64,000 nt of DNA from a virus: the IMG/VR virus record IMGVR_UViG_3300026183_000827. One strand, 5' to 3'. Position numbers and translations under genes: made by a program. Of this stretch, positions 1 to 30,254 are shown one piece after another; the stretch's first letter is position 1; each line of letters begins with the position of its first letter. The notes under the pieces are model-generated. The model searched no databases. It had not been told where the DNA came from and worked only from the letters and a program-made list of their open reading frames with translations.

Positions 1-71
1 TTATAGCAGTGTTTGTAATGGGTATGATAGGTTTAGGAATTGAATTGTACACAGGAAGGTTGCCACTATGA
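1..71 (+). CDS. 3' end of an upstream small hydrophobic protein (partial)
   Basis: Open frame from window edge reads IAVFVMGMIGLGIELYTGRLPL*; its TGA overlaps the QueE ATG (ATGA at 68-71). Confidence 0.55.
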   Translation, partial: IAVFVMGMIGLGIELYTGRLPL

Positions 72-10174: not shown

Positions 10175-10921
10175 ATGAATCATAATACTGTTGTAAGATC
10201 TCTTCAAATTTTAACTCACTTACTTGCACTATACGGTGTGTATTATAGTGTAGTAAATTCAGCATGGGCATTTTTAGGAACGAGTGTATTAGTATACTGG
10301 TTTATAGGAGTCTTTGGAATTAATATAGGATATCATAGACTGATATCACATAGAAGTTTTGAAACATACAAACCTATTGAATATTTACTTGCACTAATAG
10401 GTTGCATAACTTCAATTGGTAGTCCATTAGCATGGAGTGTTTTACATAGGCATCATCACGGTCATGCTGAAAAAGATACAGATGTTCATAGTCCTTATCA
10501 TTTAGGATGGTTTAGAGCCTGGTTTGGATTGTGGAGTGTTCCGCATATTAGTCCTAAGCTGTCAAGAGATCTAAGAAAAATAAAGTTTTATAGATTTACA
10601 CACAAATATTATTTACATATAATTGCTTTATATATTCTAATACTTGCACTAATTGACCCGTTATTTATTGTTTATGTGTATGCAATACCTGCTGTATTAG
10701 TGCTACATAGCACTAGCGCAATAATAGTAATAGCTCATATGCACGGATACAAAACACATAACACAGATGATGAAAGTCGTAACAGTTGGATTGCAAGTTT
10801 AATTACACTAGGTGAAGGTTGGCACAACAATCATCATAACAATAGTAAAGCATGGAACAACCAAGAGCGTTGGTGGGAACTTGATCCGCCTGCTTGGATA
10901 ATTAGAGCTATAAAAAAATGA
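10175..10921 (+). CDS. Membrane fatty-acid desaturase (delta-9/OLE1/DesC-like), copy 1
   Basis: His boxes YHRLISH, HRHHH, GEGWHNNHH; WWELDP; hydrophobic segments. Start set at ATG 10175 (GGAG SD). Confidence 0.9.
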   Translation: MNHNTVVRSLQILTHLLALYGVYYSVVNSAWAFLGTSVLVYWFIGVFGINIGYHRLISHRSFETYKPIEYLLALIGCITSIGSPLAWSVLHRHHHGHAEKDTDVHSPYHLGWFRAWFGLWSVPHISPKLSRDLRKIKFYRFTHKYYLHIIALYILILALIDPLFIVYVYAIPAVLVLHSTSAIIVIAHMHGYKTHNTDDESRNSWIASLITLGEGWHNNHHNNSKAWNNQERWWELDPPAWIIRAIKK

Positions 10922-11664
10922 ATTACGGAACAAAAGTACAATTATTAACATTGTTAAATCATATAGTTTTAGCTATTGGCATTTACTATACTAATAACTG
11001 GTCACTATTATGGTTAGGATTATTAATGTATTTGTTTGTAGGACTTTTTGCAGCAAATATATCTATGCATAGATATTTGTCTCACAGAAGTTTTGAAACT
11101 GGACCATTGCGTGAAAAGTTTTTAAAATATGTAAGTGTACTTGCATGTTTTGGAAGTCCTTTAAGTTGGGCTGCGCTACATAGACATCATCACAAAACAA
11201 GCGACACAGAATTAGACATACAAAATCCAAAAACTATAGGAGCTCTCAGAAGCTGGAGTAGCTTATATCCCGAAACAAATATAAGTCCAAGACTTGTAGG
11301 CGATATGTTACGAGACAAAGATATAAAATTTATTCATAATAATTATTTTACAATTATAACAGTAATTTATATTATATTATTTTTAATTGATCCTATGTTA
11401 CTAGTTTGGGGATTTGTTTTTCCAGCAGTATTAAGTTTTCACGGAGCGGCAGCAATAGGTGTTATTCCACATTACCAATGGGCTGGTTATAAAGTAGTAG
11501 AATCTAATGATGACAGTGTTAACAGTCCACTTGCATGTCTTTTAAGTTTAGGTGAAGGATGGCACAACTATCATCACTATAAATCTGCAGATTATAGACA
11601 CGGACACAAATGGTGGGAATTAGACCCTAGTGCTTGGATAATTGAAAGGATATTTTTAAAATGA
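10918..11664 (+). CDS. Membrane fatty-acid desaturase (delta-9/OLE1/DesC-like), copy 2
   Basis: MHRYLSH, HRHHH, GEGWHNYHH, WWELDP. Confidence 0.9.
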   Translation: MNYGTKVQLLTLLNHIVLAIGIYYTNNWSLLWLGLLMYLFVGLFAANISMHRYLSHRSFETGPLREKFLKYVSVLACFGSPLSWAALHRHHHKTSDTELDIQNPKTIGALRSWSSLYPETNISPRLVGDMLRDKDIKFIHNNYFTIITVIYIILFLIDPMLLVWGFVFPAVLSFHGAAAIGVIPHYQWAGYKVVESNDDSVNSPLACLLSLGEGWHNYHHYKSADYRHGHKWWELDPSAWIIERIFLK

Positions 11665-12218
11665 CACCAGATGATTACTATATGAACTTTGCCTACGTTA
11701 GTGAAAAATGGCTGTTTGAATATATGACAGAACATTATGCTAACTCAGATAACACTGAATGGTTAGAACAAATAGAAGACGAACTTAAACATACTAAAAT
11801 GTGTCAAGGTGCTTTACGTAAACAAGGTGTTGACTATTACGACGATACAAAGTATAGTATAGAAGCAGCAATATATGGAGATTTAGGAAATTTTTATCCT
11901 ACTAATGATGAAGAGTTTAGTGCGCTAAGTTGGATTGTAGAAAAACGTGCATTATTCTTGTATCGTTATTATATGCGTAACGGCAATAATGATTTGTATA
12001 GAAAAATTACACAAGGTATTATTGACGATGAAATGAAACATGTCGGCTTTCATAACGAAGAAATAACACCTTCACACAAACGTATAAGAGAAATTGATAA
12101 AGCAATATTTACAGCATTTAACGAAACTTATGGACGCAAAGGAATGTTTGGTCAACAATTTTGGGAAGATTTGTTTACTGGAAAAATTAAGGACAAAGTA
12201 GATGTCAAACTACCTTGA
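11661..12218 (+). CDS. Ferritin-like di-iron carboxylate protein
   Basis: Two E...DExxH units: SEKW...EDELKH and VEKRA...DDEMKH. Confidence 0.65.
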   Translation: MTPDDYYMNFAYVSEKWLFEYMTEHYANSDNTEWLEQIEDELKHTKMCQGALRKQGVDYYDDTKYSIEAAIYGDLGNFYPTNDEEFSALSWIVEKRALFLYRYYMRNGNNDLYRKITQGIIDDEMKHVGFHNEEITPSHKRIREIDKAIFTAFNETYGRKGMFGQQFWEDLFTGKIKDKVDVKLP

Positions 12219-12966
12219 TTACGTTTCAAATACTAGTTGGGTAGATATTACTCCAATGTTTTCAGTTTGTCCTGTAGATAAAATTATGCAGGAAATACAT
12301 TCCGTTGAAAATATGTTTTTAGAAGAACGTGATCCAGAACAGTATAAAACTATGCAAGAAAAAGGTGCTACAGGCATCGGTGAACATTTTGATAATCAAA
12401 AGAATTGGGAAGCTGTAACATTGTTTAGTAGTACAGGTGACTACAAAGATATTTTAACACAGGGAATTTTACCTAATCAAGACCTTAAAACATATATGGA
12501 AAGTTTTAGAAACTTACGTAATCATAAATGGACACAACTAGCAAAATTAATGCCAAATACTGTAAAATGGATTAAAGATGAAATTGGTCAGTATATGCAA
12601 TTTAGTTATATTAAAATTGCTAAACTAGGACCTGGTGGAGATGTGCCTGTGCATACAGATGTTCCGCACGAAGATTTTGATTTTTTAAATACACAGAATA
12701 CATATAATATGCTTAATAGTTTTTTAGTAGAACTAAACTTTCCTAAAGGCGTTACAGCATGGCACGACGGTGTTGAATTGCCATATCAACAAGGAAGTAT
12801 TATATTTTGTAACCAAAGTAAATCACATGGCACAATAAATCGTAGTAATGAAACACGATATAATTTAAGAATACAAGGTTTGCATAATAAAAAATTTAGA
12901 AACGACTTAATGCAATTGGCTAAAAATTACAATATGTACCCTTCTACAAGCACTCAATACCTGTAA
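12202..12966 (+). CDS. Asp/Asn beta-hydroxylase-like 2OG-Fe(II) oxygenase
   Basis: AKLGPGG.VPVHTD, distal SHGTIN...RYNL. Confidence 0.75.
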   Translation: MSNYLDYVSNTSWVDITPMFSVCPVDKIMQEIHSVENMFLEERDPEQYKTMQEKGATGIGEHFDNQKNWEAVTLFSSTGDYKDILTQGILPNQDLKTYMESFRNLRNHKWTQLAKLMPNTVKWIKDEIGQYMQFSYIKIAKLGPGGDVPVHTDVPHEDFDFLNTQNTYNMLNSFLVELNFPKGVTAWHDGVELPYQQGSIIFCNQSKSHGTINRSNETRYNLRIQGLHNKKFRNDLMQLAKNYNMYPSTSTQYL

Positions 12967-16609: not shown

Positions 16610-17223
16610 TGCGATGCAACATATTCTCCGCGAGAGGCTACATTCATTCCTATGCTTATTCTAATATCGTCTGATACATTACGCTCTGTTTTGTGTCGTA
16701 TATAGCCAGGAAACATTATCAAGTCTCCTTGCTGTATTTTCATTCTTTGTTCAAATTCATCAAAAGGAAAATTAATAGGTTGTGAACCTAATAATGCTTC
16801 TAAAGGATGCTGTATAATTAAGTCTCCCGAACCTTCTGTTTTATCAAGATAGTATACTGCTGTAATAGGTGTAGGGCCATGAAAATGACTAGGAACATAA
16901 CCATCTTTTCTACTAATAGTAGCCCACATTTCTTGTATATAAGGTTTAATGTTAGGATGATAATTTAGATCTTTCCAATACTCTGCAATACAAGGACTAA
17001 TAGCGTTAACTAGCTGATCAGTTTCTTTCCAATTTTGCATGTGGCGTTCTATACCATATGTGTTTATAGTACTAGCATCGTTCATACCTACAACACTTAT
17101 ATGATCGCCGTAACTATCAATATTTAATAGTTCAAGTACCCGTGATCTAAAACTTGACACATCTATACCTTGTAAATTCTTTTTATAAACAGGTATACTA
17201 AAAAGTTGCTGTACATTACTCAT
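16594..17223 (-). CDS. Putative 2OG-Fe(II) oxygenase
   Basis: LFSIPVY N-terminus, SHFHG, GDLIMFPGYIRH...RISI. Confidence 0.8.
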   Translation of the reverse strand: MSNVQQLFSIPVYKKNLQGIDVSSFRSRVLELLNIDSYGDHISVVGMNDASTINTYGIERHMQNWKETDQLVNAISPCIAEYWKDLNYHPNIKPYIQEMWATISRKDGYVPSHFHGPTPITAVYYLDKTEGSGDLIIQHPLEALLGSQPINFPFDEFEQRMKIQQGDLIMFPGYIRHKTERNVSDDIRISIGMNVASRGEYVASQWNQV

Positions 17224-17656
17224 TGTTCATAATCTCTTTATAATAATCTTCAGGCCAATCATCATAATACGTTGTATCTAAAAGTACTTGTCTTTTTATT
17301 TCGATATCGTCTTTTTTTTGTATTAGAACACAGTTTGTAAAATTTTTAACAAAATGACCACTTTGTGGTGTACTTAAAAAGTATAGTAAGTGTGGATTTA
17401 ATTTTCTTAAATCCGCTAATTCATCTTCTATTCCAGAAGTAAACTCTCCTAACCATGCAATACCTATATCATAGTTTTCTTCATCAAATTCTAAAAACTC
17501 TCCGTATATACCTCTAGGAGCATTTATAAACTGTATACGGTCTTGCAATCGTGCTTTACGTGCAAATGGACATATAGGATATCCATTTCCTCTAGTGGGT
17601 TCTATTTTGTCTTGTACCCATTCTAGAAATTGGGTTTTAAAGGTCTCAAAAGTCAT
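17216..17656 (-). CDS. Hypothetical protein with PICPFA motif
   Basis: 146-aa ORF; CPFA motif reminiscent of DUF1415-like proteins; first gene after a TATAAATA motif. Confidence 0.7.
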   Translation of the reverse strand: MTFETFKTQFLEWVQDKIEPTRGNGYPICPFARKARLQDRIQFINAPRGIYGEFLEFDEENYDIGIAWLGEFTSGIEDELADLRKLNPHLLYFLSTPQSGHFVKNFTNCVLIQKKDDIEIKRQVLLDTTYYDDWPEDYYKEIMNNE

Positions 17657-17688: not shown

Positions 17689-18258
17689 TTAATCGAGCAA
17701 TGTGGCTACAAGGTGTACACGATCTTCTAAACTTGCGTTTAGTGCTGTGTGCTTTACTAATGTATTAGTTAACCACCAAGTGTGCTGAGGCAAATGTTTT
17801 ACTTCGTCTTCTATTAACATAAAACAGCCTTCTTGTGTAACTATGGGATAGTGTATGCGTTTAGTGTCATCTACGTGCCAACTTAAACATGTTTTAGGAG
17901 GGCTTTTCATTAGCCGTACTCTGCCTACATTATAATTTTCTTTTAATACATTGTAAAGATCTTCAAACACAGTATTTTTAAACACAGTACACAAAACTGT
18001 AAAATCTGCTTCTTTTAACGGTGTTTCTCTTTCTGCTGGTATATGGCGCATATGACCTTTTTCGTCGTATACTTCTTTTCCATTTTTCCAATCATAAAAT
18101 AAACTTCCTGCACCATACAAAAAATTATCTTCTTCTCCTACTACAGTATTAATACAAATCTGATTTAAATCTGTCCATTGAACAATTTTACGTGTCAACA
18201 TATTGTTTAAAACACTTTTTACATCGTAATAAGGAAGGTCCAATTGTACAAAATTCAT
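17689..18258 (-). CDS. Asp/Asn beta-hydroxylase-like 2OG-Fe(II) oxygenase
   Basis: RVRLM..P..CLSWHVD..RIHYP, KHTALN...RVHLV. Confidence 0.78.
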   Translation of the reverse strand: MNFVQLDLPYYDVKSVLNNMLTRKIVQWTDLNQICINTVVGEEDNFLYGAGSLFYDWKNGKEVYDEKGHMRHIPAERETPLKEADFTVLCTVFKNTVFEDLYNVLKENYNVGRVRLMKSPPKTCLSWHVDDTKRIHYPIVTQEGCFMLIEDEVKHLPQHTWWLTNTLVKHTALNASLEDRVHLVATLLD

Positions 18259-18992
18259 TTTAATTTTCCAAATGCATATATACGTTCAGCACAAAAAAAA
18301 CAATACCCACAATGTTCCCATGCATGTTCAGACAAAGTTTTAGTTTTATGTTCTTGCCATCTAGTTTCGCAACTGTACGATAGCGGGTATAGGTCGTCTA
18401 ATCTGTTATAATATTTATATGCATCATATATAAGTTTTTTATCACCATGCACAAAAGGCCTTATATTAATAAAATGTTTTGCGTCTATTACGTTTTGTCC
18501 ATACTTGTTTTTTCCTATATCTCTATCAAAATCTCTTTTTACAATGTGACTTTTTGCAATTTCATATGTTTCTGCATTATCTGCATAATATTCTTTAACA
18601 GCATTTAGTATATTTCCTTCAGGAGGATTGCTAGTTAACCCGTTATATATTGCATCAAAATTATAAATCTTTTGACTTTCTCTTATTAATTCACGCTGCT
18701 CTGTAATATAATATTCAACTGTTTGTCTATTTCGATGTTTCGTTGAATATTTTACTATATGCTTTGCTAGTTCTTTACCTGTTAGCTCTGTTACTTTTTT
18801 TATGATACGTTTGGCGCCTTTGCTATACCAAGGTTTAAATTTTGTATCTAGAGTCATTGGATATATTTCTACATCATCTCTATCTTTATAGTAATTACAT
18901 ATTGCATAATACATTATTGTACTATCTGCGCCGCCAGATAATTTTACACCTATCCGCTTCCAGTTGTCGTTAAAATAAAATAACTCATTCAT
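18255..18992 (-). CDS. QueC-like PP-loop ATP pyrophosphatase, copy 2
   Basis: LSGGADS PP-loop; C-terminal SC...HCGYCFFCAER zinc motif. Confidence 0.75.
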   Translation of the reverse strand: MNELFYFNDNWKRIGVKLSGGADSTIMYYAICNYYKDRDDVEIYPMTLDTKFKPWYSKGAKRIIKKVTELTGKELAKHIVKYSTKHRNRQTVEYYITEQRELIRESQKIYNFDAIYNGLTSNPPEGNILNAVKEYYADNAETYEIAKSHIVKRDFDRDIGKNKYGQNVIDAKHFINIRPFVHGDKKLIYDAYKYYNRLDDLYPLSYSCETRWQEHKTKTLSEHAWEHCGYCFFCAERIYAFGKLK

Positions 18993-19882
18993 ATTAGTTC
19001 TACCCTATCTATTGTATTATATTCGCATAATTTTATTACTATTTCTTCTGATGTTTTGTTTGTTTCCATCATTGCTACAGGTATATTTCCTATTGCATTT
19101 TTAGGATCTCCTTTTGTAAAACCTAGTGCAGTTAAATAATTATTGTTTCGATCCCACCATTCATCCATACCTTGTAAAAACTTTTCTACACTCTTAACAG
19201 GTCTATTGTGAAAATAAGCTGTAAAGTCTGGACTGTACCATTTTAACGGACGTATATTATCTTCTCCTACAATATCATCTTCGTCTTTGTACACATCGTA
19301 TAACGGTTTTCCTACTTCACAATAATTAATATAAACTTCTCCAAATTTACGATGCAACGTAAAATGTTTAAAATCATCGTCATCTAAAAGTTTCTTTTTT
19401 CGTTTATTAAATGTTACAACTATTCTAGGAAAATATCCTGTAGATATTCTATGTCCGCCGTAAAAGTTCTCTGCTCTATGTATAATAACATTATACCGCT
19501 CTAGTGCTAATTTCTGTTTATCGTTAGCATTTACATAGTACTCTGCAGGGTTACCAGATTCTCCTCTAAGTTTTTCAAAATAATGATGTAAATGATTTAG
19601 CTGTTCTTGAGGCATACCTACAAATGCATCATGTTTAATAACTGTTTTTTCTGTATTAATAATGTCAATACACTTGTTTAATTCACTTACTATTTTTTCT
19701 TCGTTCCATATATCATTTGGAAAATTATAAAGTCTATCAGATTCTTTAGCTGTTTTATCTTTTTCTAATACTTGTTCGCATAGTGCATTATACCATTTAA
19801 CCGCAATGGGTGTATCATATACTTTATAATTTAATGCATACTCATCTAGATCACTATTTAAAAATACTATTTGAAATCTCAT
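18989..19882 (-). CDS. Unknown His-motif protein, paralogue of 21623-22447
   Basis: LNHLHHYFE, YNVIIHRAE, VYINY...GK, YSPDF, DPKNAIGNIP align with the paralogue. Confidence 0.75.
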   Translation of the reverse strand: MRFQIVFLNSDLDEYALNYKVYDTPIAVKWYNALCEQVLEKDKTAKESDRLYNFPNDIWNEEKIVSELNKCIDIINTEKTVIKHDAFVGMPQEQLNHLHHYFEKLRGESGNPAEYYVNANDKQKLALERYNVIIHRAENFYGGHRISTGYFPRIVVTFNKRKKKLLDDDDFKHFTLHRKFGEVYINYCEVGKPLYDVYKDEDDIVGEDNIRPLKWYSPDFTAYFHNRPVKSVEKFLQGMDEWWDRNNNYLTALGFTKGDPKNAIGNIPVAMMETNKTSEEIVIKLCEYNTIDRVELI

Positions 19883-20979
19883 CGTGTATAGTCTTCTCTA
19901 AGTTCTTTACTTGCGCAAGTACGTTTGCATATGTCAATACATTTAGACGACCAGGAGTTTTCTATAGTAGTCAAAAGTCCTGCATTAACTACATCTGTTG
20001 CAGTGTGTTTAGATAGCAAATTAAAATCTTTTTCTTTATTAAGTGTCTTAAAAAATAAATCTACAAAAGAAGAATAATTATTATTTAAAGTCTTTTCATT
20101 GTAATCAATTTCCATCCAGCAGCACGGCCATAATCTACTATCGCCACTTATATAAATGCTTTCTAATCCTTGTGTAACTTTGCAATCTACAATTTCAGGA
20201 CCATTAATATAAGATTTTGATCTATCATCTTGTAAAACATCAAATTCTTGATTTACAAATTTATATATTTTTTCATACCACTGCTTAGATCTATCTTCTT
20301 TATCTAAATTTTTATTATTTTTTACAAATTCTGTAGGATATAGTATAGCAACTTCGTCAAAGTTTTTATCAACTAGTGCATCATATTCTTTGTAAAACCT
20401 AACACTGTCGTTTGAATAAAATTCTGCAAAGCCTAAGTCTTTACTCATTTGTTTACAAGCATCTACCTGATGTTCGTTATTACCAAACACATTCATTATC
20501 CAACGTGCATAGCCGCCTGCTTTTATGTACGCTTTTGCATTTTTTATTACAATGTCAAAGCGTGTGTTTCTTCTGTACAAATGATGAGTATCTTCTAGTC
20601 CATCTAGTGCAAACTCTACGATAACATTTGGTTGTTTGCCTAACCAACTCCAAAAACCAGTTGGCAAGGCGCCGCCATTTGTATTAATTTGTATATGCAA
20701 ATGTTTGTCTAAAAAAGTTTGTATAAATTCTTTAGGAGATCTATGCATTACAATATCTCCATAATTACCATTTATTAAAACTTTTTTTATATTATTAAAA
20801 AAATCGTCAGACAACATTTTTTTAAGATTGTCGGGTGTAATCTCTGTTTCTGGTATGTTAGGATAAGTTTGTAAAGATGCTCCTATAGTACGAGGGCATT
20901 GCGGGCATGCTGCATTACAGCGTTTAGTAGGCTCAATATGTAAATATTCAGGTAAATCTTTGTATATTCCAATTATCAT
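19879..20979 (-). CDS. Radical SAM enzyme with C-terminal SPASM/twitch-like cysteines
   Basis: CNAACPQC, NTNG, FALDG, C-terminal DC...WPCCW...CKRTC. Start set at 20979 (ATGA overlap with the upstream stop). Confidence 0.85.
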   Translation of the reverse strand: MIIGIYKDLPEYLHIEPTKRCNAACPQCPRTIGASLQTYPNIPETEITPDNLKKMLSDDFFNNIKKVLINGNYGDIVMHRSPKEFIQTFLDKHLHIQINTNGGALPTGFWSWLGKQPNVIVEFALDGLEDTHHLYRRNTRFDIVIKNAKAYIKAGGYARWIMNVFGNNEHQVDACKQMSKDLGFAEFYSNDSVRFYKEYDALVDKNFDEVAILYPTEFVKNNKNLDKEDRSKQWYEKIYKFVNQEFDVLQDDRSKSYINGPEIVDCKVTQGLESIYISGDSRLWPCCWMEIDYNEKTLNNNYSSFVDLFFKTLNKEKDFNLLSKHTATDVVNAGLLTTIENSWSSKCIDICKRTCASKELREDYTR

Positions 20980-21623
20980 AATCTTCCAAAAGCCCATTTT
21001 CTTTCGTGACACCACCAACAGTTTCCGCAGTGTTCCATTCCAGGATCTTCGCCTACTACATGTTCATTCCATTCACAGCTTCGTGTAACTGGAAATAGTG
21101 TTTCCAACAAATCATATTCTTTATATATTTCTGCTATTTTCTTTTTATCATAGTTTGTCCACGGAATATAGCTAAATCCATATCTAAATACTTCCTTTTC
21201 GATATCTGGATTTCTAGTATCTTCATAAAAGTCACCATAAAAAGTTTTACGTTCTTCTATTGGAGGGACATTTGTAATACCAGCATACAACACATTAAAC
21301 TCTTTTTTATCTAGATATTCAAACGGCAAACGTTCAACATATGTATCTATATAATCAGGAGAATAGTCTATATGATGTTCAAAATTATAATTACCTGTTA
21401 ATTGCGCACATCTATAAACTACATTTACTGCTGCTTTTGCGCCTGTGATTTGTTTTGTACCGTCTGCAAGTGTGAAAATGTGTACACGGTCTTTTGAGTG
21501 CTTTAGTAAGAAGTATAATAGTATGGCACTATCGGCGCCGCCACTAACACTAATAGCATTAGGTCCTTTGTATATGTTAAATTCTACACCACATAAATTA
21601 TGTGTTTCAACTATGTTTGCCAT
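20976..21623 (-). CDS. QueC-like PP-loop ATP pyrophosphatase, copy 1
   Basis: VSGGADS; TRSC...HCGNCWWCHER. Confidence 0.75.
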   Translation of the reverse strand: MANIVETHNLCGVEFNIYKGPNAISVSGGADSAILLYFLLKHSKDRVHIFTLADGTKQITGAKAAVNVVYRCAQLTGNYNFEHHIDYSPDYIDTYVERLPFEYLDKKEFNVLYAGITNVPPIEERKTFYGDFYEDTRNPDIEKEVFRYGFSYIPWTNYDKKKIAEIYKEYDLLETLFPVTRSCEWNEHVVGEDPGMEHCGNCWWCHERKWAFGRL

Positions 21624-22447
21624 TATAATTCCTCTATTTCAACTTTAGTTAATTCTCGTTGTAGAATTACTTTTAGAAAATCCTCTGGGTAAACTTTGTG
21701 TAATCGACCTAATGGAATATGTCCTAGTGAATTTACAGGATCTGTAACGTCTATATTGCTGTTTTGCATCCATTGTATACAATTAGTTATTTCTCTATGT
21801 TGTTTTTCAACATAATCTGACTGTAGCACAAAAAAGAAACTTGGACTATATTCAGATAGAGGTACTGCTGTACTAACAGGCCTTCCACTTTTAAATGTTT
21901 TTAGAAAATCTTCGCCGAGTGCATTATAATTTAAGTAAACTATATAAGGTTCAATATACGGATCATACAGTTTGTAATCTTCTTTTTTAAACGGAACTTT
22001 TGGAAAATTAGGAACTCTAGTTTTTGAATCTACGACTCTAAAACGCACTCGTGGTGCTGCTGTTTGATTTTTAATTGCTGCTTCTTCTGCATGATGTATA
22101 CAGTCATTAAACTTGTCTAATAGTCCTATTATAGATTTATACAGAGGATTTACAGCCAGTTGTTCGTAAATGTAATGCAAGTCACTTAATTCTTGTATTG
22201 TAAACTCAAACTTTTCTGTATACAAATAAGGAATAGATAGAGGAAATGCTTTGTTAATTTCTTGTATTATGAGTCTTAGTTGTTTAAAACTATCTTTGCC
22301 TACAAATCCGTTTAGTGTAATTTGGTAACTATAATTTTTATTATCTATATATTGTTGAAGGTCAGTTAACCAACGATTAATAAAATCGTTGTCATTTAGT
22401 CTTATACTAATAGTATGTCTTTCAAATGTTAATTTTAAAAGTTTCAT
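21623..22447 (-). CDS. Unknown His-motif protein, paralogue of 18989-19882
   Basis: LSDLHYIYE, FNDCIHHAE, VYLNY...GE, YSPSF, DPVNSLGHIP. Confidence 0.75.
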   Translation of the reverse strand: MKLLKLTFERHTISIRLNDNDFINRWLTDLQQYIDNKNYSYQITLNGFVGKDSFKQLRLIIQEINKAFPLSIPYLYTEKFEFTIQELSDLHYIYEQLAVNPLYKSIIGLLDKFNDCIHHAEEAAIKNQTAAPRVRFRVVDSKTRVPNFPKVPFKKEDYKLYDPYIEPYIVYLNYNALGEDFLKTFKSGRPVSTAVPLSEYSPSFFFVLQSDYVEKQHREITNCIQWMQNSNIDVTDPVNSLGHIPLGRLHKVYPEDFLKVILQRELTKVEIEEL

Positions 22448-22731
22448 TTCTTTTTTCGTGTACTTTTTAAATCAGCTACGCAAGTACATTTAGATACTGT
22501 ACAAGTAATAAACTCTTTTGGCAAGTTCCATACTTCGTCATCAACGTGTCCGATTGGACCTCCAACTTTGCAAGTACCTCTATACAATGTTCCGTCTGCT
22601 GTAATTTCTAAACTTTCTAGTCCTATGCCGCAATCCCAACCTTCAAAATTAACAGCATCTGCTTTAACTAAGTCATTAGCCCATACCTCTGCACTTTCTG
22701 TTTGTGTATAAACTTTTAAATCAGGCCTCAT
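22444..22731 (-). CDS. Stand-alone SPASM/twitch-like Fe-S domain
   Basis: GWDCGIG...I.ADG..YRGTC...C....CTC.ADL, four-Cys-type pattern shared with the N-termini of 23392 and 25478. Confidence 0.7.
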   Translation of the reverse strand: MRPDLKVYTQTESAEVWANDLVKADAVNFEGWDCGIGLESLEITADGTLYRGTCKVGGPIGHVDDEVWNLPKEFITCTVSKCTCVADLKSTRKKK

Positions 22732-23398
22732 CTACATTCTCCAATTGTGCGTACCTAAATGTACTATCGTTTAAAAAACGTAACTGTTCTTCTGTATATA
22801 CAGGATCGTATCTTTCACCGTCCCATTTTTTACGTATACGTTTCATATAGTATATAATACCATGCTCTTCACAAAATTTTACTAGTTTAACTGCGGTGTC
22901 CCAAAATTCTGGTTCCATCATAAGATTTAAACTTACATGCTTGTACGGAAACTTATTTGCTTCTTTATGCGTTTCTACTAACTTGTGAGTAAATTCATCA
23001 AACTTTAAGTATTCAAAATGGCTGCTAAATTGAATAATGTCTATTTGATTTATAAGTTCTTTAAAGTAATCAGCAGTTCTGCTACCGTTAGTATTAAGTC
23101 CCACGAACCATCCATTTTTAGTTTTAAGATGTTTACACAAATCCATAAAGGCAGGATTAACTGTGGGCTCTCCTCCTGTGAACCAAATGCGCACACGTTC
23201 TCTAGGACTATTAAGTTCTATTTTGTCAGCAATAGACTTTAAACTGTCTAAATCTCTGTGAGGACTAGTAAGGTCGTGAAGTTTGTCAGGACAATAAATG
23301 CAATCATAATTGCAACGTTTTCCAATATTCCAATGTACATAATAGTAGTCTTTATCTCTTGTAGACTCCATTGCAATTATATCTTTGTAATCTACCAT
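22721..23398 (-). CDS. Radical SAM core protein lacking its own auxiliary domain
   Basis: WNIGKRCNYDCIYC, FTGGEPT, NTNG, SSHFE. Confidence 0.85.
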   Translation of the reverse strand: MVDYKDIIAMESTRDKDYYYVHWNIGKRCNYDCIYCPDKLHDLTSPHRDLDSLKSIADKIELNSPRERVRIWFTGGEPTVNPAFMDLCKHLKTKNGWFVGLNTNGSRTADYFKELINQIDIIQFSSHFEYLKFDEFTHKLVETHKEANKFPYKHVSLNLMMEPEFWDTAVKLVKFCEEHGIIYYMKRIRKKWDGERYDPVYTEEQLRFLNDSTFRYAQLENVDEA

Positions 23399-23969
23399 TC
23401 TAATGTCCTAATATACTTTAATTGTTTATCTGTATACGGATAAATTTTATTGCTGTTTGACTTGTCTACTAAAGGTTCTACGTTAACAAATACACAGTCT
23501 TTATCAAGTTTTTTACAGTTGTTTACAAAATTTATATATGTTTCATCAAAGTCTAATGGCAGCATTACCTTTACTACTAAGTGTGCAGTGTCTATCTTAT
23601 TACTTGCAACATATTCTATTTTTGCGTATAACTTATCTAATTGTGTATATTCAGAGTGTATGCTTAAATATATTCCGCCAGCATTAGTATAATCTAATAA
23701 TTGCTTCTTATTTGCTGTTCCGTTAGTATTTGTAAATACACTAACATTATTATAAGATAAACAATAATCGACTATGTTTTTATAAGCAGGATTAATTGTA
23801 GGTTCGCCGCCTGTAAATGTTATTTTTATACTGTCTAGATTTACTTGTTTATAAATGCTATCAAACGCATTTTTAAAATCAGTAAACTGCATGTGTGGAC
23901 TATTGTTATCATGTACACTACTAGGGCAATAACTACAATCATAATTACAACGTTTTCCAATATTCCAAT
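23301..23969. repeat. 34-nt direct repeat (33/34 identical) at 23301-23334 and 23936-23969
   Basis: caatcataatt(g/a)caacgttttccaatattccaat, encoding WNIGKRCNYDC in two adjacent radical SAM genes. Confidence 0.85.
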
Positions 23970-24336
23970 TTATTGAAAAATATCGTTCGTTTGAACCTAT
24001 AGCAATTATATCTGCATTATCGTATAACGGTGCATTGTTTATTACTTTAAAATCTACTAAAGTATTTTTTGCTTTAGATATGTTAATATCACTTGCACAA
24101 TAACACTTCTCTGCAGGACATAGCATAGGTTCTGTTGGCAAAACTATATCAGTAAACACATTTCCGTATTTTCCGCTATGACGGCAAACATTACCGTATA
24201 CATCGCCTGCACTGTTTATCCATAGAAAATCAAATCCTGCAGAACATTTCCAACCTTTAAAACTATTAAAAGTTGTTTTAGCATCTGCTAATGTAGTCGA
24301 TTGTATATCGTCGTTAATTGTTTTTACTAATAACAT
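23392..24336 (-). CDS. Radical SAM enzyme with N-terminal SPASM/twitch-like domain
   Basis: N-terminal FKGWKCSAG...C...CPAEKCYCASD, then WNIGKRCNYDCSYC, FTGGEPT, NTNG. Confidence 0.85.
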   Translation of the reverse strand: MLLVKTINDDIQSTTLADAKTTFNSFKGWKCSAGFDFLWINSAGDVYGNVCRHSGKYGNVFTDIVLPTEPMLCPAEKCYCASDINISKAKNTLVDFKVINNAPLYDNADIIAIGSNERYFSINWNIGKRCNYDCSYCPSSVHDNNSPHMQFTDFKNAFDSIYKQVNLDSIKITFTGGEPTINPAYKNIVDYCLSYNNVSVFTNTNGTANKKQLLDYTNAGGIYLSIHSEYTQLDKLYAKIEYVASNKIDTAHLVVKVMLPLDFDETYINFVNNCKKLDKDCVFVNVEPLVDKSNSNKIYPYTDKQLKYIRTLEW

Positions 24337-25481
24337 TATAATCCAAAGTGTTGCCTAGTTAGTGGACCAATTACATCTTCAGCTTTCATATTACGCTGTG
24401 CTAGTAATACAGTAAATTCTTTCTTTAATTGTTCGGTTGTATAATTATTGTTTCCAGGTACTAGTGTTTTCTTTAGTCCTGACGATTTAATTCGAGAACG
24501 CACATCTTCTATTATATGCTTTGGTAAGTTTTGATAATTCATTAAATGTGTACTAGGTTTGATTTCGCAACTATAACCTACTACATCTTTTACTTCCCAA
24601 AAGTATTCTTCAATTTCTGGTAAAAACTCAAAATTAAATATGTTAACTAAGTTCGATACGCTGATATGAATATTGTCAAATTTATTATTTCGCAAGTATT
24701 CTAAATTTTTGTGCATCTTACTCCATTTGTGTGGCCAGCGTATAAACTCATAGTTAGAATCGATACTGTCTACACTGATGCGTAAATGTGCGCTTTTAGT
24801 TTTACTTAGACGAGAAAATATTTCTTCATTAAGAATAGTTCCGTTTGTAGTAACTTCTAAGTGTAAATCTCTACAATAATCTTTATCGATAACATCTGCA
24901 ATCTTATCCCAATTTTCTTTTAAAAACGGTTCTCCGCCAATTAGTTTAAGAGTATGAACTTTGTAATGTTGTAGTATTTCAGCAATAACATCTGCTGTTC
25001 TAGTTGAACCTGCACTAAAAGAATTAGTTAAAGGTATCCAAGACTTAGGCCTATTGTCGTCATCTAATTTATTAGAAAGTTTATCAATTAAACTACTTGC
25101 ATAACTAGTACAAAACGGACATGCAAGATTACAACTGTTACCTAACACTACATCTAATTTATTAATATCGTACTCTGAATAGTTGATACTATTGATCTTA
25201 TCTCTAGGACTTTTAATACCTTTTGTTTCATAGTTTTTACAACCTATACACGCAGGATGTAAGTCATCATTATTAGCAAAGTAATCTCTATAATATTGTA
25301 ACGGTGCTAGATTCATAATGTCGTTAATAGATTCTACTTTTACAGGTTTGCTAAACTCAGAAGGTTCAAGTTCGTGTGTAATATGACAGCAAGGTTTTAT
25401 ATATGCATAAGTTTCGTTGTTTATATCATATATTTTTATTCTTGCGCCTTTTTCTACATATCCACAATGATTTTGTTTCAT
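24336..25481 (-). CDS. N-terminal twitch-domain radical SAM protein
   Basis: HC...KPCC...CIGC N-terminus, CNLACPFC, IGGEPF, TTNGT, SVDS. Confidence 0.85.
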   Translation of the reverse strand: MKQNHCGYVEKGARIKIYDINNETYAYIKPCCHITHELEPSEFSKPVKVESINDIMNLAPLQYYRDYFANNDDLHPACIGCKNYETKGIKSPRDKINSINYSEYDINKLDVVLGNSCNLACPFCTSYASSLIDKLSNKLDDDNRPKSWIPLTNSFSAGSTRTADVIAEILQHYKVHTLKLIGGEPFLKENWDKIADVIDKDYCRDLHLEVTTNGTILNEEIFSRLSKTKSAHLRISVDSIDSNYEFIRWPHKWSKMHKNLEYLRNNKFDNIHISVSNLVNIFNFEFLPEIEEYFWEVKDVVGYSCEIKPSTHLMNYQNLPKHIIEDVRSRIKSSGLKKTLVPGNNNYTTEQLKKEFTVLLAQRNMKAEDVIGPLTRQHFGL

Positions 25482-26464
25482 AATTGTCTAGCCTTGAGTA
25501 GTTTGATTTTTTCTATTGAGTTTACAATGCGTTTATTGTAATAAATATGTTGTTTTTTAATCGAATCAAAATCTAATCCAAAAACACTTTTTACTAAATT
25601 CCAAAAAATTCTATTATTTTTGTCATCTCCTAACATATCTACTTGTACCTTAGAGTAGTTCTCTTTATAAATTTTGTAAACTTTTTCAATAAGTTTTTTG
25701 TTTGCAAATTCTTCATGTAATGTTATAATAAAAAATACGTTTTTTTCTAATAATTTTTCATATAGTGCAGACGGAGCAGTTCCGTTACTATTGATAGTAA
25801 TATGACTAAACCCATATTCATAACATAAATCAACTAATTTTATCAATTCTTTACTAAGTGTAGGTTCGCCACCAGTTATTATTAGATTAAGTTTGTAATT
25901 TGACATAGATTTAAATTCCAAACACTCAAATAATTTTTTTATTTTTTCTAAACTTAAAAAGTTACCATAATTATTATGAACAAACGGACTACAGTATATA
26001 CAATCATAGTTACATCTTTTTGTATAGTCTAATGTCAAAGTAAAATCTAAATTTTTGTTGGCTCCTCCTAGTGCAATTACTTCATCTTTTTTTGTTAAAC
26101 TAGATAAAGTAGTATAATCTTGAACGCTATTAGCTTTCTCGACAAATAAATCATATGTTTCTTGATCAATGGATTTATATGCTAACAAATCGCTTCCGCA
26201 AGAACAAATCGAAATCCTACAATTATTACTTGCATTATGTAATAAATTTTTTATTTCATCAAATTTTGTCCACCAAGGAGATGTGTCTGTAGATATCCTT
26301 AAATTACCACAGACACCCGACATAGCATTTCCATCTACACTGAATGACACAGCATTTTTTGCAATTGGACAAAACCAATTTTTAAACTTTATATTTCTTT
26401 TTTTTATATCACGCAAGTTAGTTTTTTTTAACACACGTTTATTTGTTAAAACTAACACTGTCAT
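25478..26464 (-). CDS. Radical SAM enzyme with N-terminal SPASM/twitch-like domain
   Basis: FKNWFC...GVC...CRISICSCGSDL, then KRCNYDCIYC, TGGEPT, NSNG. Confidence 0.82.
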   Translation of the reverse strand: MTVLVLTNKRVLKKTNLRDIKKRNIKFKNWFCPIAKNAVSFSVDGNAMSGVCGNLRISTDTSPWWTKFDEIKNLLHNASNNCRISICSCGSDLLAYKSIDQETYDLFVEKANSVQDYTTLSSLTKKDEVIALGGANKNLDFTLTLDYTKRCNYDCIYCSPFVHNNYGNFLSLEKIKKLFECLEFKSMSNYKLNLIITGGEPTLSKELIKLVDLCYEYGFSHITINSNGTAPSALYEKLLEKNVFFIITLHEEFANKKLIEKVYKIYKENYSKVQVDMLGDDKNNRIFWNLVKSVFGLDFDSIKKQHIYYNKRIVNSIEKIKLLKARQL

Positions 26465-27150
26465 TTTATACCTATCCTCATAAATCTTTTATATTTAGAT
26501 AAGCTAAGTTCTCCTTGATAGAACACGTTTTCCATTGGTGTTATTTGTGCAAAATCATCTAAATTATCTACACAATTTACATGTTCAAGCAAATCAAAAT
26601 AATTATTGTTTTGTAATATTACAAGTGTTCCTATCGGAATATTATTATACCATTCTTTAAATTTATCTGTAAAAATGTGTTCACAACTAGTGTTGATAAT
26701 AGTATTAGGCATATCTATTAAATTTTGCGAACTACCGTCAGATCTATAAGTTGTATATTCAGTAGGGTACTCCATTTCTAAAATATCAAGTGTACTTGCT
26801 TTGAATTGCCAGTTGTCCATAACCCACGGTTTATTAATAGTGTCAGCAATTGGCGCACAAGTTTTATCTATATCAAAACTACGAATTTTATCAAACTTAT
26901 CTCTAGCACGTTCGAACATCATACTAGCTAATGTGCCGTACCAACCTGCGCATATAAAAACTGTTCCTAAATTATCTGGAAGATTTTCTACTAGCCACTC
27001 TTTACTTTTTAATTGCCCTAAACTATAAGCATCAACTAACGCAACTTCGCACTCAGGAAACTTATTTAATGTTCTTTTCATCTGACCAATAGTATTATTG
27101 CCAGGATAAAGGTGTTCTAAACCATTTAAAAGATTAGCTGTATTGCTCAT
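26461..27150 (-). CDS. Putative class I SAM-dependent methyltransferase
   Basis: VFICAGWYG glycine loop, RSFDID acidic strand, INTSCEH. Confidence 0.55.
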   Translation of the reverse strand: MSNTANLLNGLEHLYPGNNTIGQMKRTLNKFPECEVALVDAYSLGQLKSKEWLVENLPDNLGTVFICAGWYGTLASMMFERARDKFDKIRSFDIDKTCAPIADTINKPWVMDNWQFKASTLDILEMEYPTEYTTYRSDGSSQNLIDMPNTIINTSCEHIFTDKFKEWYNNIPIGTLVILQNNNYFDLLEHVNCVDNLDDFAQITPMENVFYQGELSLSKYKRFMRIGIK

Positions 27151-27808
27151 TAAACTGCTCCTTTAGCCAATCAAAATTATTTATTAACTTAAGATCATCG
27201 CGATTAGAAAGGCCAAACTCACGGCCAGCCCTAGCACCGGCAAGAGCATAGGAACCATAAGGTCTGTCTTCTCCGACTGTACACCACGTTTCAAGTCTTT
27301 GTTCTGTTTCATCATTTTTCTGCCTATCAATTATTTTGCTGCTAAGTTTAGCACATTCTCTAAATGCACTTTTCCAAGTATTAAATGGGTCAGTATTAAA
27401 TGCTGTTACGTTTGCAACTTCGTGAACTGCTTTAAATTTTGAACTAATACTAGTAGTCATATCAGGCTTACTAGTATCCATATTAATAGTCAGTCTACGA
27501 GGAAGTAATTTTATTCCACCATATCCGTATACTAAATCATTAATAGGATTTTGACTGCGCCAAACATGTACGGTTTCTAAATTGTATTCATCAACTTCAT
27601 AATCAAAATTAAAATCATCAACTATTAATGCATCAGCATCAACTACCCAAAACATTTTAGTAAAACATTTTTTAGCTGCGGCAATATGTGCTTGATGTAT
27701 TCCTTTAACACCATCTACACGTTTTGCCATTGGAAATCTACTTTTTAATTTTTCAAAGTTTTCGTCTGCATTTGGTTCTTGATATGAAATAAAAACAATA
27801 TCATACAT
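27134..27808 (-). CDS. GT-A-like glycosyltransferase, paralogue of 36218-37135
   Basis: DIVFISYQEPNA, WVVDAD (DxD), YGGIK, W.SAFRE. Confidence 0.6.
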   Translation of the reverse strand: MYDIVFISYQEPNADENFEKLKSRFPMAKRVDGVKGIHQAHIAAAKKCFTKMFWVVDADALIVDDFNFDYEVDEYNLETVHVWRSQNPINDLVYGYGGIKLLPRRLTINMDTSKPDMTTSISSKFKAVHEVANVTAFNTDPFNTWKSAFRECAKLSSKIIDRQKNDETEQRLETWCTVGEDRPYGSYALAGARAGREFGLSNRDDLKLINNFDWLKEQFNEQYS

Positions 27809-29030
27809 TTCTTGTATTGCCGTAATAGATAACTTTACTTACATTAGATACAAAACTGCGCCAAGGATCTACAACTATACTGCCTGCAGGCACAACACAA
27901 TAAAGTGTGTCAGTGTCATCGCCTTCCATTTTCATATACTTGTAAGTTGTACTAGCACTATGAGCTAATAACATTACACAAGGCCCGTTTGGTTCGTTAT
28001 TGTCTCCAGTTAATGGATCAATATACGTAGGAGCAAATCCATGTTTTTCACAGTAGTGCCCGACTAGTAGACTATAACTACCGTCACAGTATTCTACGCC
28101 AGGCTTATACGCTTTGCCATGAATGTAAATAGGCAAGTTATGTTCGTTTGCTTGTTCTACTAGTTTGAGTGCAAGGTTTTCTGCCTGTATCTCTCTAGCA
28201 TGCATTATACTGTCAAACAAGTCGTAACCTAGTCCTAGTTCTTGTGCCATATAGCGTAGTGCAATGTTATCACGTGGATGACATGCGCCGCCATCGCCCA
28301 TTCCTGCTTTCATATACTGCGGGCCCATAATACGCATAGTACTTTGCGCTAGTGCATCTGTTACAACATCAACATTAATGTTGCCTTGACGTTCTGCAAC
28401 ATCTTGTATCATATTCACTAGTCCAATTTTAGCACTAATAAATGTATTGTAGAATACTTTAATGCATTCACACTCGTCCCATGTACCAATTACATAACGT
28501 GGATCGTTTTCCATTACAGTTTTATAAAAGTCTACAAGTTGTTTTGCATCGCCGGTTTCGCTTCCATCTTCTGTGCCAATCATTACCATTTCTGGATTTA
28601 CCATATCCCATGCTACACTGCCCATAGCAATTAAATAAGGATTGTATACAAAACGTGTGTTAGTAACTAGCTGTACAAACTCTCTGCGTGTTGTACCAGG
28701 TAACACTGTACTAATAAGAACAAGCAACTGATCTTTGTTCATATGCTTGTTTGCTTCTTCTATAACATGTTGAACAATGCCATACCCAAAGTCTTTAGGT
28801 TCTAAATGTGCTGTAGGAGCTCTGCCGTCGTAATCTGGATCGTGAGGTGTAGGTACAGCAATAAAAACAATATCTCGATCTTTTACAACATCTTCGATTG
28901 TGTCAACTACTGTTACAAAGTTACTTGTTCTAGGTGCAATATCGTATCCAGATACATTATGGCCTTTTTGTACAATAGCTTCTGCACATGGCATGCCAAG
29001 TTTACCTACACCGATAAAACCGATATTCAT
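27801..29030 (-). CDS. ugd: UDP-glucose/GDP-mannose 6-dehydrogenase family
   Basis: GVGKLG Rossmann loop, IAVPTP, STVLPGT, KVFYN, GGACHPRD (catalytic Cys), AYKP. Confidence 0.88.
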   Translation of the reverse strand: MNIGFIGVGKLGMPCAEAIVQKGHNVSGYDIAPRTSNFVTVVDTIEDVVKDRDIVFIAVPTPHDPDYDGRAPTAHLEPKDFGYGIVQHVIEEANKHMNKDQLLVLISTVLPGTTRREFVQLVTNTRFVYNPYLIAMGSVAWDMVNPEMVMIGTEDGSETGDAKQLVDFYKTVMENDPRYVIGTWDECECIKVFYNTFISAKIGLVNMIQDVAERQGNINVDVVTDALAQSTMRIMGPQYMKAGMGDGGACHPRDNIALRYMAQELGLGYDLFDSIMHAREIQAENLALKLVEQANEHNLPIYIHGKAYKPGVEYCDGSYSLLVGHYCEKHGFAPTYIDPLTGDNNEPNGPCVMLLAHSASTTYKYMKMEGDDTDTLYCVVPAGSIVVDPWRSFVSNVSKVIYYGNTRNV

Positions 29031-29041
29031 TTTTTACTCCT

Positions 29042-29063
29042 ATAATATACGTATATTATTTAT
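29042..29063 (-). promoter_or_regulatory. ATAAATA motif overlapping an 18-bp perfect palindrome
   Basis: ATAAATA (-) 29057-29063; ATAATATACGTATATTAT 29042-29059; AGGAG SD follows. Confidence 0.55.
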
Positions 29064-29652
29064 TGCTAAACACAGGCATTGTAGACAGATCAGGATAATC
29101 TTTGTATGACCATTTTTTAGGTTTTGATACTATTGCGTTTTTAATTCTATCTATGCCTAGTTGAGCAGTTTCAGGCGTCATATAATAGTGATAACCCATT
29201 TGGTGTACTTGTTGTTCTGCCCAAGGTGTATTTCTGTGTCTACCGTCATAGCTCATTTTTATTAGTTCTGCACGATCTAACGCACTGTCACATAAAATTA
29301 TTCCGCCTCTACCTAGACCCAGATGTTTTTTAAATTGAAAACTTAAACACATAAAAGTGCCTGATATGTAACTTTTCTCTCTCCATAAAACTGCTGCATC
29401 AATTATACGAGTGTTTGGAAATTGATAGTATTCATACCATTCTTCGCCTATAAAATGCCAACCAATATTTAATTTTTCTAGTGTCATTGGAACACTTAGA
29501 TATGTGTTCTTTGGACAAGCTGTATGTTTTATATTCTTATAACGCAAACATAATTCAATAGCATGTGTACAACTATCTGTTGCTACAGCATAAGGTGCGC
29601 CAAAAAAGTTTGCTACTTCATGTTCAAATTGTTCTACAACATCAAAACTCAT
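29056..29652 (-). CDS. DegT/DnrJ/EryC1/StrS sugar aminotransferase (short form)
   Basis: FE...A.FFG..YAVA.DSCTHA, IDAA, LSFQFKKHL..GRGG; only 198 aa. Confidence 0.8.
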   Translation of the reverse strand: MSFDVVEQFEHEVANFFGAPYAVATDSCTHAIELCLRYKNIKHTACPKNTYLSVPMTLEKLNIGWHFIGEEWYEYYQFPNTRIIDAAVLWREKSYISGTFMCLSFQFKKHLGLGRGGIILCDSALDRAELIKMSYDGRHRNTPWAEQQVHQMGYHYYMTPETAQLGIDRIKNAIVSKPKKWSYKDYPDLSTMPVFSNK

Positions 29653-30254
29653 TACATTGCCTTTAACAATCTAGCAGGGGATCCTACATATATCCCTGCG
29701 GTGTCAACACTTTTAGTTAGGTTAGAAAATGCTCCAACTGTAACATTGTCACATATGTCTATTTTGTTTATTGCACCACTTTTAAAATTAAACATACAAT
29801 TCTTGCCTATGTTTGTTTTGCCAGCAATCATAGATCCACTATGGAACATACAATTATCTCCTACAGTAACATCATGACTAATCAGGCAATATGTTTCAAT
29901 AAAGCAGTGTTTGCCTACTACAGCACCTTGCATAACTGTACTAAAGTTAGCAACACACGAACCTTTACCAATTACAGCACCTTCGTGTATAACAGCAGTA
30001 TCATGAATATACGTTACACAATCACAGTCATGCTCGTCTAACAAATCTACTGTTTGCGCACGTTCTTGCAAGTCTAATGCAAATCCTATAAAATACTGAA
30101 AATCATCTTTGTTTTGCAATTGCTTAAATTTTTGCGGACTTATAATGCTGCAATCTTCGTTAACAAAGTTCTTGCCGTAAAACATACTGTCTTGTGTTAG
30201 TATGCTTTGTTCGTATCCAATAATTTTAAGCGGCTTTTCATTTTTAATCAGCAT
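29652..30254 (-). CDS. Hexapeptide-repeat sugar acetyltransferase (NeuD/PglD-like)
   Basis: Left-handed beta-helix repeats, ISHD catalytic His, C-terminal YVGSPAR. Confidence 0.85.
   Translation of the reverse strand: MLIKNEKPLKIIGYEQSILTQDSMFYGKNFVNEDCSIISPQKFKQLQNKDDFQYFIGFALDLQERAQTVDLLDEHDCDCVTYIHDTAVIHEGAVIGKGSCVANFSTVMQGAVVGKHCFIETYCLISHDVTVGDNCMFHSGSMIAGKTNIGKNCMFNFKSGAINKIDICDNVTVGAFSNLTKSVDTAGIYVGSPARLLKAM

Follow-up and report, generated by a model that had tools for sequence, protein, structure and literature searches.

The chemistry conserved across the QueC superfamily of PP-loop enzymes is the ATP-dependent activation of a carboxylate. Canonical QueC is defined by the motifs YxQxHxxE, VPxRN and YPDC, which are retained in Cap9, and N-acetyl-sugar amidotransferases of the WbpG/PseA type form a PP-loop branch of PF06508; the repurposing of the superfamily beyond preQ0 synthesis is an active topic (PMC13329287). 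The RRE/PqqD-dependent radical S-adenosylmethionine (SAM) maturases of the SPASM type, such as PqqE and MftC, have a small partner that is not itself a radical SAM protein (PqqD, MftB), encoded beside the maturase or fused to its N-terminus. Pelagimyophages and cyanomyophages have a host recognition cluster in which cassettes of radical SAM genes have also been noted, without explanation (Zaragoza-Solas et al. 2020, PMC7029224). Here we analysed seven open reading frames (ORFs) on the minus strand, at 18255-23398, of a 64,000-nt stretch of DNA (the window) from an uncultured marine/estuarine phage (IMG/VR record IMGVR_UViG_3300026183_000827), in which two members of an un-annotated protein family, here called X, alternate with radical SAM genes and with two PP-loop proteins, PP1 and PP2. 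We found that the robust unit in these and related loci is X plus a radical SAM enzyme, the PP-loop gene being a frequent, movable extra. A search of the literature returned no paper linking a cyclophilin-like protein, which is what X resembles in its predicted fold, with radical SAM enzymes, nor one linking a QueC-like protein with them in this setting. In transcription order the seven genes are:

22721..23398, minus strand: rSAM-A, a 225-aa bare radical SAM core with CxxxCxxC and without an auxiliary-cluster domain (PF04055 5e-15)
22444..22731, minus strand: stand-alone Cys-rich twitch/SPASM-like protein of 95 aa, directly upstream of X1
21623..22447, minus strand: X1, 274 aa, the rarer family branch (27 clusters of close homologues)
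20976..21623, minus strand: PP1, a 215-aa divergent PP-loop ATPase of the QueC superfamily (PF06508 8e-6)
19879..20979, minus strand: rSAM-B, a radical SAM protein with a C-terminal Cys-rich tail, 366 aa after start revision (PF04055 1.5e-7, phrog_21308 1.4e-16)
18989..19882, minus strand: X2, 297 aa, the common family branch (>127 close clusters)
18255..18992, minus strand: PP2, a 245-aa paralogue of PP1 (phrog_1550 'QueC-like' 2.3e-7)

Re-reading of the sequence placed all seven ORFs on the minus strand at the coordinates above, each start overlapping or abutting the preceding stop, so that the seven are translationally coupled. The one revision concerned rSAM-B, which had been listed as 19879-21018 from a TTG at 21018: the DNA holds an ATG at 20979 that overlaps the PP1 stop as ATGA, and this ATG is most likely the start. 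The same gene order, at 97-98% protein identity, was present in two independent IMG/VR contigs from different samples (L006 and L007) and is therefore not an assembly artefact. Thus, apart from the corrected start, the repeated order of radical SAM, X and QueC-like genes reported in a preliminary description of this DNA is real. The region had no blastn match among GenBank phages.

The relationship between X1 and X2, described earlier as diverged paralogues, was borne out by a significant alignment (BLASTP E=3e-7, 21% identity across 211 columns) and by a single profile that recovers both proteins; we take them to be old paralogues. The motifs with conserved His and Glu that had been listed for them proved to be the invariant columns of a 29-sequence alignment (H91, E95, N114, I117, H118, E121, D157, Y174, G178 and G242 in X1 numbering). 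Neither X1 nor X2 had a Pfam, NCBIfam or PHROG match, a Pfam scan of 122 diverse members gave no consistent match and only noise, the family profile likewise found only noise among PDB sequences, and two ESM Atlas searches produced no usable match. In a profile search of 1.84 billion representative proteins, the family comprised 1,186 clusters (50% identity) with a threshold of E<=1e-3 and 865 with E<=1e-10. Pattern scanning located 52 loci in IMG/VR and a single match in 185,579 prokaryote genomes, this one on a 3-kb contig of a metagenome-assembled genome (MAG), and tblastn of X2 against 50,697 GenBank phage records found none. Judged from these searches, X is a large, almost exclusively viral and un-annotated family. 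X2-type and X1-type genes adjoin in two lineages (L057, 5944-7652; L143, 6153-7861), which suggests that the two paralogues may act as a pair.

The AlphaFold2 model of X2 was of high confidence (pLDDT 94.5, pTM 0.90, from an 81-sequence alignment). Foldseek comparison of this model with the PDB gave nothing below E 0.1, but in an exhaustive VIA-align search 31 of the top 36 rows were cyclophilin-fold chains, aligned at Z 8.5-11.6 with a root-mean-square deviation of ~3 Å over 116-140 residues. Residues ~54-150 separately resembled helical bundles. Taken together, the two kinds of match make X2, as modelled, an eight-stranded cyclophilin-like beta-barrel split by a helical insertion at ~54-150, an assignment that rests on one predicted model. 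Ten viral structures in BFVD have the whole X fold, one of them a 768-aa fusion and another from the Agrobacterium jumbo phage Atu_ph07. The novelty claimed for the family thus holds for the sequence databases, from which it is absent, and does not extend to the core of its fold, which is a known one. Among the structures resembling the barrel core, at Z 9.3-11.6, are peptidyl-prolyl isomerases (PPIases; 2ose, 1z81), many cyclophilins aligning at Z 10-11.6, non-PPIases (TM1367 1zx8, 3kop) and the Pictet-Spenglerases McbB (3x27) and KslB (9k0a). Their identity to X is 4-11%, which amounts to no sequence similarity, and X differs from the cyclophilins in that a helical insertion of ~95 residues carries the invariant residues of the family. 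Nothing ties X to prolyl isomerase activity, and the cyclophilin-type PPIase family PF00160 matched neither X1, X2 nor any of the 122 relatives.

Among the 122 diverse members, N131, H135 and G191 (X2 numbering) were invariant, and N96, H99, F102, E103, E138, D170, F174, G181, Y187, K192, D202, P212 and G265 were at least 90% conserved. In the predicted model N96, H99 and E103 lie on one face of the helix 92-106, and N131, H135 and E138 on one face of the helix 121-146; if the helices form an antiparallel hairpin, the two Asn-His-Glu ladders would be mirror images. They may form a single polar site, catalytic or metal-binding, to which the barrel contributes D170, Y187 and K192. The Asn, His and Glu residues of the ladders are compatible with a metal site, which we regard as a candidate only. 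Three other roles for X were considered and rejected. As a modified substrate or carrier, X would be expected to look otherwise, there being no invariant Cys or Lys-only pattern and the conserved residues being enzyme-like; as an analogue of QueD it has a different fold; and modification of its N-terminus by the PP-loop proteins, in the manner of QatB and QatC, does not agree with X N-termini that are neither conserved nor Gly.

The neighbourhood of X was then compared over 35 viral loci, dereplicated at 90% X identity, in which ORFs were called and classified with the window proteins. Of the 37 X genes, 30 had a radical SAM or Cys-rich gene as an immediate same-strand neighbour, 16 of them on both sides, and radical SAM genes were present in 32 of the 35 loci (median 4, maximum 7 per locus). 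A PP-loop gene lay within 6 kb of X in 18 of the 35 loci, and the remaining 17 had none within that distance. The preliminary description had expected X to be linked elsewhere to both kinds of gene; the linkage to radical SAM genes stood firmly and that to the PP-loop genes is less tight. In addition, a gene designated P0186 encodes a natural fusion in which X is followed by a complete radical SAM protein of the N-terminal-twitch type, here called rT (profile E 5e-126), in the order X, twitch, radical SAM; it lies in a bacterial contig, where ftsZ and ftsA are its neighbours and a second radical SAM gene comes after it. This fusion argues for a physical partnership between X and the radical SAM enzyme, and its layout recalls the N-terminally fused partners of the PqqE and MftC systems. 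In contrast to the PqqD/MftB-type partners, X is 270-300 aa long, has a different fold and enzyme-like invariant polar residues, and comes with no evident precursor peptide.

Two further fusions were found in cellular contigs. One, X fused to a VOC/glyoxalase domain, is translationally coupled to a 662-aa glycosyltransferase of family GT1 (L061, 9001-12710). The other, X fused to SCP2, stands directly after an AsnB-like PP-loop amidotransferase; the cluster around them also encodes GT92, GT2, a JmjC protein and ABC exporters (L062, 7622-10266). A diverged X, recognised by Foldseek (E 1.5e-11) and hhalign (E 8.7e-5), is also present with three radical SAM genes in a cultured phage, Atu_ph07, where an unannotated operon (L065, MF403008 116908-123646) encodes in order a JmjC/cupin protein, a radical SAM protein, ORFs of 296 and 263 aa, a second radical SAM protein, a 112-aa ORF, the X-like protein (117995-118897) and a third radical SAM protein. 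The 296-aa and 263-aa genes were discarded as relatives of X or PP (hhalign probability <1%).

Both rSAM-A and rSAM-B have the CxxxCxxC core and a PF04055 match. rSAM-A is a paralogue of two radical SAM ORFs upstream, at 23392 and 25478, and its split form, a core with a separate Cys-rich gene, was also seen in L056, L057, L143 and L145. The separate Cys-rich gene lay just upstream of the X gene or genes in all five X1-type loci examined. In the window this 95-aa protein has five Cys and no Pfam match and is homologous, by phmmer, to the N-terminal Cys-rich domains of the ORFs at 23392 and 25478; the name SPASM given to it earlier therefore stands as SPASM/twitch-like by motif and paralogy only. 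The SPASM family PF13186 itself was weakly matched in homologues, namely the P0186 and L046 genes. rSAM-B frequently adjoins X2-type genes, in either order.

PP1 and PP2 are paralogues (BLASTP E=4e-25, 31% identity). PP1 scored above the PF06508 cut-off (25.9 bits against 22), and PP2 was placed in the QueC superfamily only via PP1 and PHROG 1550. An alignment of 20 PP members showed as invariant the SGGxDS motif, P120, P154 to K160 of a PF(x)4K motif, S182-C183, C199, C202, C205, E207 and R208; SGGxDS is thus present in 20/20 proteins, and a four-Cys site, C...CxxCxxC, corresponding to the zinc motif of canonical QueC, is kept. By regular expression and by alignment, YxQxHxxE, VPxRN and YPDC were absent from all 20. 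The QueC model TIGR00364 scored 20.8 bits for PP1 against a cut-off of 150 and did not match PP2. Given the missing substrate motifs and this low score, PP1 and PP2 belong to the QueC superfamily and are not QueC; on these sequence criteria they are a separate clade of it. The PP profile matched ThiI and Cap9 in the PDB, and the AlphaFold model of PP1 (pLDDT 79) had QueC (3bl5 and 2pg3), Cap9 (9nto_B) and TtuA as best Foldseek matches, the comparison with 3bl5 giving E 2.8e-5 and a TM-score of 0.54-0.58.

PP1 and PP2 thus resemble QueC (3bl5, 2pg3), Cap9 (9nto) and QatC in their PP-loop Rossmann fold, SGGxDS, PF(x)4K and four-Cys site, and they may share with them ATP-dependent carboxylate adenylation. 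They differ from QueC and Cap9 in lacking the three substrate motifs and any QatA/B/D or CD-NTase context and in being embedded in a radical SAM island. With the WbpG/PseA enzymes they have in common the PP-loop superfamily and a glycan-biosynthesis neighbourhood, a likeness of context only; PP1 and PP2 may have a comparable role, turning the acyl or carboxyl group of a sugar into an amidine or amide, but WbpG and PseA measure 300-400 aa against 215-245 aa, and no NCBIfam sugar-amidotransferase model was among the PP matches.

No promoter-like or terminator-like sites beyond shuffled expectation were detected in the region, so the seven genes are taken to belong to a single long operon, which starts with a 4,331-aa ORF and tail-fibre genes and extends down to ~13.5 kb. 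The 4,331-aa ORF (window 50885-63880, minus strand) encodes a VrlC-like giant structural protein and is the first gene of this minus-strand late operon; tail-fibre PHROGs lie upstream of the seven genes, and AspH/LpxO-family and 2-oxoglutarate oxygenases downstream. The closest neighbours are:

17689..18258, minus strand: cupin oxygenase of the AspH/LpxO family, directly downstream of PP2 (PF05118 3.6e-8)
23392-24336, minus strand: N-SPASM-like radical SAM protein (PF04055)
24336-25481, minus strand: N-terminal-twitch radical SAM protein of the rT type (NF033640 N_Twi_rSAM 5e-48, PF04055)
25478-26464, minus strand: N-SPASM-like radical SAM protein (PF04055)
26461-27150, minus strand: methyltransferase-like ORF (motifs only)
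27134-27808, minus strand: GT-A-like ORF with DxD (motifs only)
within 26461..30254, minus strand: UDP-sugar dehydrogenase, DegT aminotransferase fragment and hexapeptide acetyltransferase (Pfam)

Against the PDB, the radical SAM ORFs at 24336 and 23392 matched only viperin and MoaA-type proteins, through the generic core, which is uninformative on substrate, and rSAM-B and the ORFs at 26461 and 27134 had no match. Of the 35 loci, 17 have the methyltransferase-like family alongside X, 10 the GT-A-like family and at least 16 the AspH/LpxO family. SDR-like and SGNH-like families recur in 10 and 5 loci, on weak Pfam matches. Enzymes of carbohydrate metabolism accompany X in independent lineages too, among them the glycosyltransferases of the cellular contigs L061 and L062. 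A 331-kb phage contig (L046) carries a cytidylyltransferase fused to a mannose-6-phosphate-isomerase-type cupin, together with GDSL (E 8e-4) and SDR-like matches too weak for the Pfam cut-off, and a carbamoyltransferase is found near X in L004. Within 6 kb, UDP-sugar dehydrogenase and DegT genes stand beside X only in close relatives. The island of the window matches the host recognition cluster of pelagimyophages and cyanomyophages (PMC7029224), likewise a hypervariable island beside a giant VrlC-type protein and tail fibres; X, the PP-loop clade and their linkage are not described there, and no function is assigned.

As a whole, the best explanation of these data is that X is a partner of radical SAM enzymes which, with optional PP enzymes, acts in a mosaic sugar-tailoring island, a reading we hold to be about an even call. 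In it, the seven coupled genes would be late genes of an uncultured large T4-like myophage, placed in a mosaic tailoring island after giant structural and tail-fibre genes. X would work with radical SAM enzymes of the twitch/SPASM type, acting on their radical product as a second catalytic subunit or, alternatively, holding the substrate as their partner. PP1 and PP2, with their retained four-Cys site, would bind ATP and adenylate a carboxylate, giving an amide, a nitrile or an amide-linked conjugate from a substrate other than free 7-carboxy-7-deazaguanine, and would be optional, movable members of the island. The substrate would most likely be a nucleotide-activated sugar or glycan precursor, and its product might decorate the virion fibres or the envelope of the infected cell; if so, it would bear on host recognition or competitor exclusion by abundant ocean phages. 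Of all this, the analysis establishes the X family, its fold, its conservation and its gene linkage, whereas metal binding, a physical partnership, the class of substrate and the product are inferred. A more far-reaching version seems to us rather unlikely. In it, X would be a new class of radical SAM partner, a cyclophilin-like protein whose His/Glu residues bind a metal, and would make up a two-component enzyme with an N-twitch radical SAM protein; together with a new QueC-clade ligase, this enzyme would build a sugar modification not seen before (for instance a cyano-, amidino- or amide-conjugated uronic sugar) on fibres or host surface, where it would serve abundant marine phages in the arms race over host recognition. 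The X family offers a recognisable marker for the unexplained radical SAM cassettes of the host-recognition islands of marine T4-like phages (PMC7029224). The present work adds to it a fold predicted with confidence, a candidate for the active site and a naturally occurring fusion of X with a radical SAM enzyme, and the QueC superfamily gains a distinct clade.

Several observations weigh against X acting as a radical SAM partner in sugar tailoring. Sugar genes lie within 6 kb of X in a minority of the distant loci only. The facing of the two Asn-His-Glu ladders is read from helix periodicity and predicted secondary structure, and the X relative of Atu_ph07 has lost the His/Glu motifs. Radical SAM genes of the rT type occur in tandem arrays of up to ~8-12 paralogues, mostly on Bdellovibrionota MAG chromosomes (L066-L142), and of these 77 loci none had an X gene and one had a PP gene; X is therefore an accessory to these enzymes and not a universal need. 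The window also contains a gene for a QueE-like radical SAM protein (68-961, plus strand; phrog_2076 7.8e-53); its match to QueE in the PDB covers the N-terminus only. Finally, by analogy, the peptide binding of cyclophilins would fit a protein substrate equally well.

This last point leads to modification of proteins, which we consider doubtful. Here X, a peptide-binding, cyclophilin-like adaptor or enzyme, would offer stretches of virion proteins, such as the giant protein or the fibres, to the radical SAM enzymes; the PP enzymes would ligate or amidate carboxylates or amines of proteins, in the way of Cap9, QatC and lasso cyclases, and the AspH-like protein would hydroxylate a residue that the GT-like protein then glycosylates. 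Beyond the fold core that X shares with peptide-binding cyclophilins, such a role would suit an island co-transcribed with tail-fibre and virion genes, and in Atu_ph07 the operon with the X-like gene, the three radical SAM genes and the JmjC-type cupin gene lies ~6 kb from a 4,449-aa 'T4-like structural protein'. Modification of protein N-termini is known for enzymes of the QueC family (PMC13329287; bioRxiv 10.1101/2025.04.06.647259), and protein hydroxylation is the classical activity of the AspH and JmjC families (PMC2938197). However, neither a precursor-peptide gene nor an RRE/PqqD domain was found, X occurs fused to the small-molecule-binding domains VOC/glyoxalase and SCP2 and coupled to a GT1 of the natural-product type, and the operon itself contains sugar-nucleotide enzymes.

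A 7-deazapurine route appears quite improbable. FolE, QueD and QueE would make 7-carboxy-7-deazaguanine, the PP enzymes would take the place of the absent QueC or couple the base to an acceptor, and the product would be elaborated further by X and the radical SAM enzymes. Such a route would account for the QueE-like gene of the window and for the presence of FolE, QueD/PTPS and QueE-like genes in all three large related records (175, 187 and 331 kb), while canonical QueC and TGT/DpdA were absent from the five related records searched, one of them 93% complete; moreover, the canonical motifs are also missing from QatC, which nonetheless uses the base (PMC13329287). On the other hand, when PP and QueE-like genes were compared for co-occurrence over 20 records, mostly fragments, three carried the QueE-like gene without any PP-loop gene (G002, 175 kb; G003, 187 kb; G009). 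The PP genes stand in the late radical SAM island and never beside FolE or QueE: the QueE-like gene of the window is 17 kb away from them on the opposite strand, and in related records the distance between the island and the FolE, QueD and QueE-like genes is ~6 to 165 kb. Each phage has two to three PP paralogues, none of the 20 PP proteins has the canonical substrate motifs, and FolE and PTPS can also serve pterin or folate metabolism. The QueE-like protein has an unusual cluster motif, C31-x3-C35 followed by C85-D-T, with ~49 residues inserted before the third Cys.

The preliminary description had read the repeated order as a fixed three-enzyme unit of radical SAM, X and PP, duplicated whole and now used on two substrates, and this did not hold up; we judge it very unlikely. 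The order is repeated in the window, L006 and L007, X and PP are both paralogous pairs, and in four loci PP directly follows X. These four all belong to the window's own clade, to which the order radical SAM, X, PP is also confined among the 35 loci. The commonest order in distant loci is PP, rT, X and an N-SPASM radical SAM gene, which puts PP two genes upstream of X, and almost half of the loci, as stated above, have no PP gene near X. rSAM-A and rSAM-B are of different radical SAM types, neither being among the phmmer matches of the other's type. Several loci speak against a fixed unit: L008 has one X, then an orthologue of PP1 (82% identity) and PP2, without X1 or rSAM-B; the X1-type locus L145 has rSAM-A, the Cys-rich gene, X1 and rSAM-B and no PP gene; L056 likewise has X1 without PP; and in L143, also of the X1 type, rSAM-A is followed by PP and then by the Cys-rich gene, and X1 has a second X next to it. 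The double occurrence of radical SAM, X and PP is a lineage-specific arrangement and not a conserved unit.

Tailoring of a lipid or other hydrophobic small molecule, in which the island would edit a lipid or glycolipid of the infected-cell envelope, is highly improbable. It would draw on the X-SCP2 fusion, on the fatty-acid desaturases and AspH/LpxO-family hydroxylase of the adjoining operons (10918-12966) and on a weak HpnH match of rSAM-B. The desaturase operon, however, lies on the opposite strand and does not stay with X in other loci, and acyl-carrier and acyl-ligase genes are absent.

Two other ORFs of the window may be mentioned. A 146-aa ORF at 17216-17656 on the minus strand, with a GYPICPFARK motif and no family match, recurs near X in L016/L017, L047, L008 and L096. 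On the plus strand, at 8556-10115, a 519-aa protein has an Mtd_N domain (major tropism determinant N-terminal, 4.9e-10) and, judged from this domain, is probably a receptor-binding fibre.

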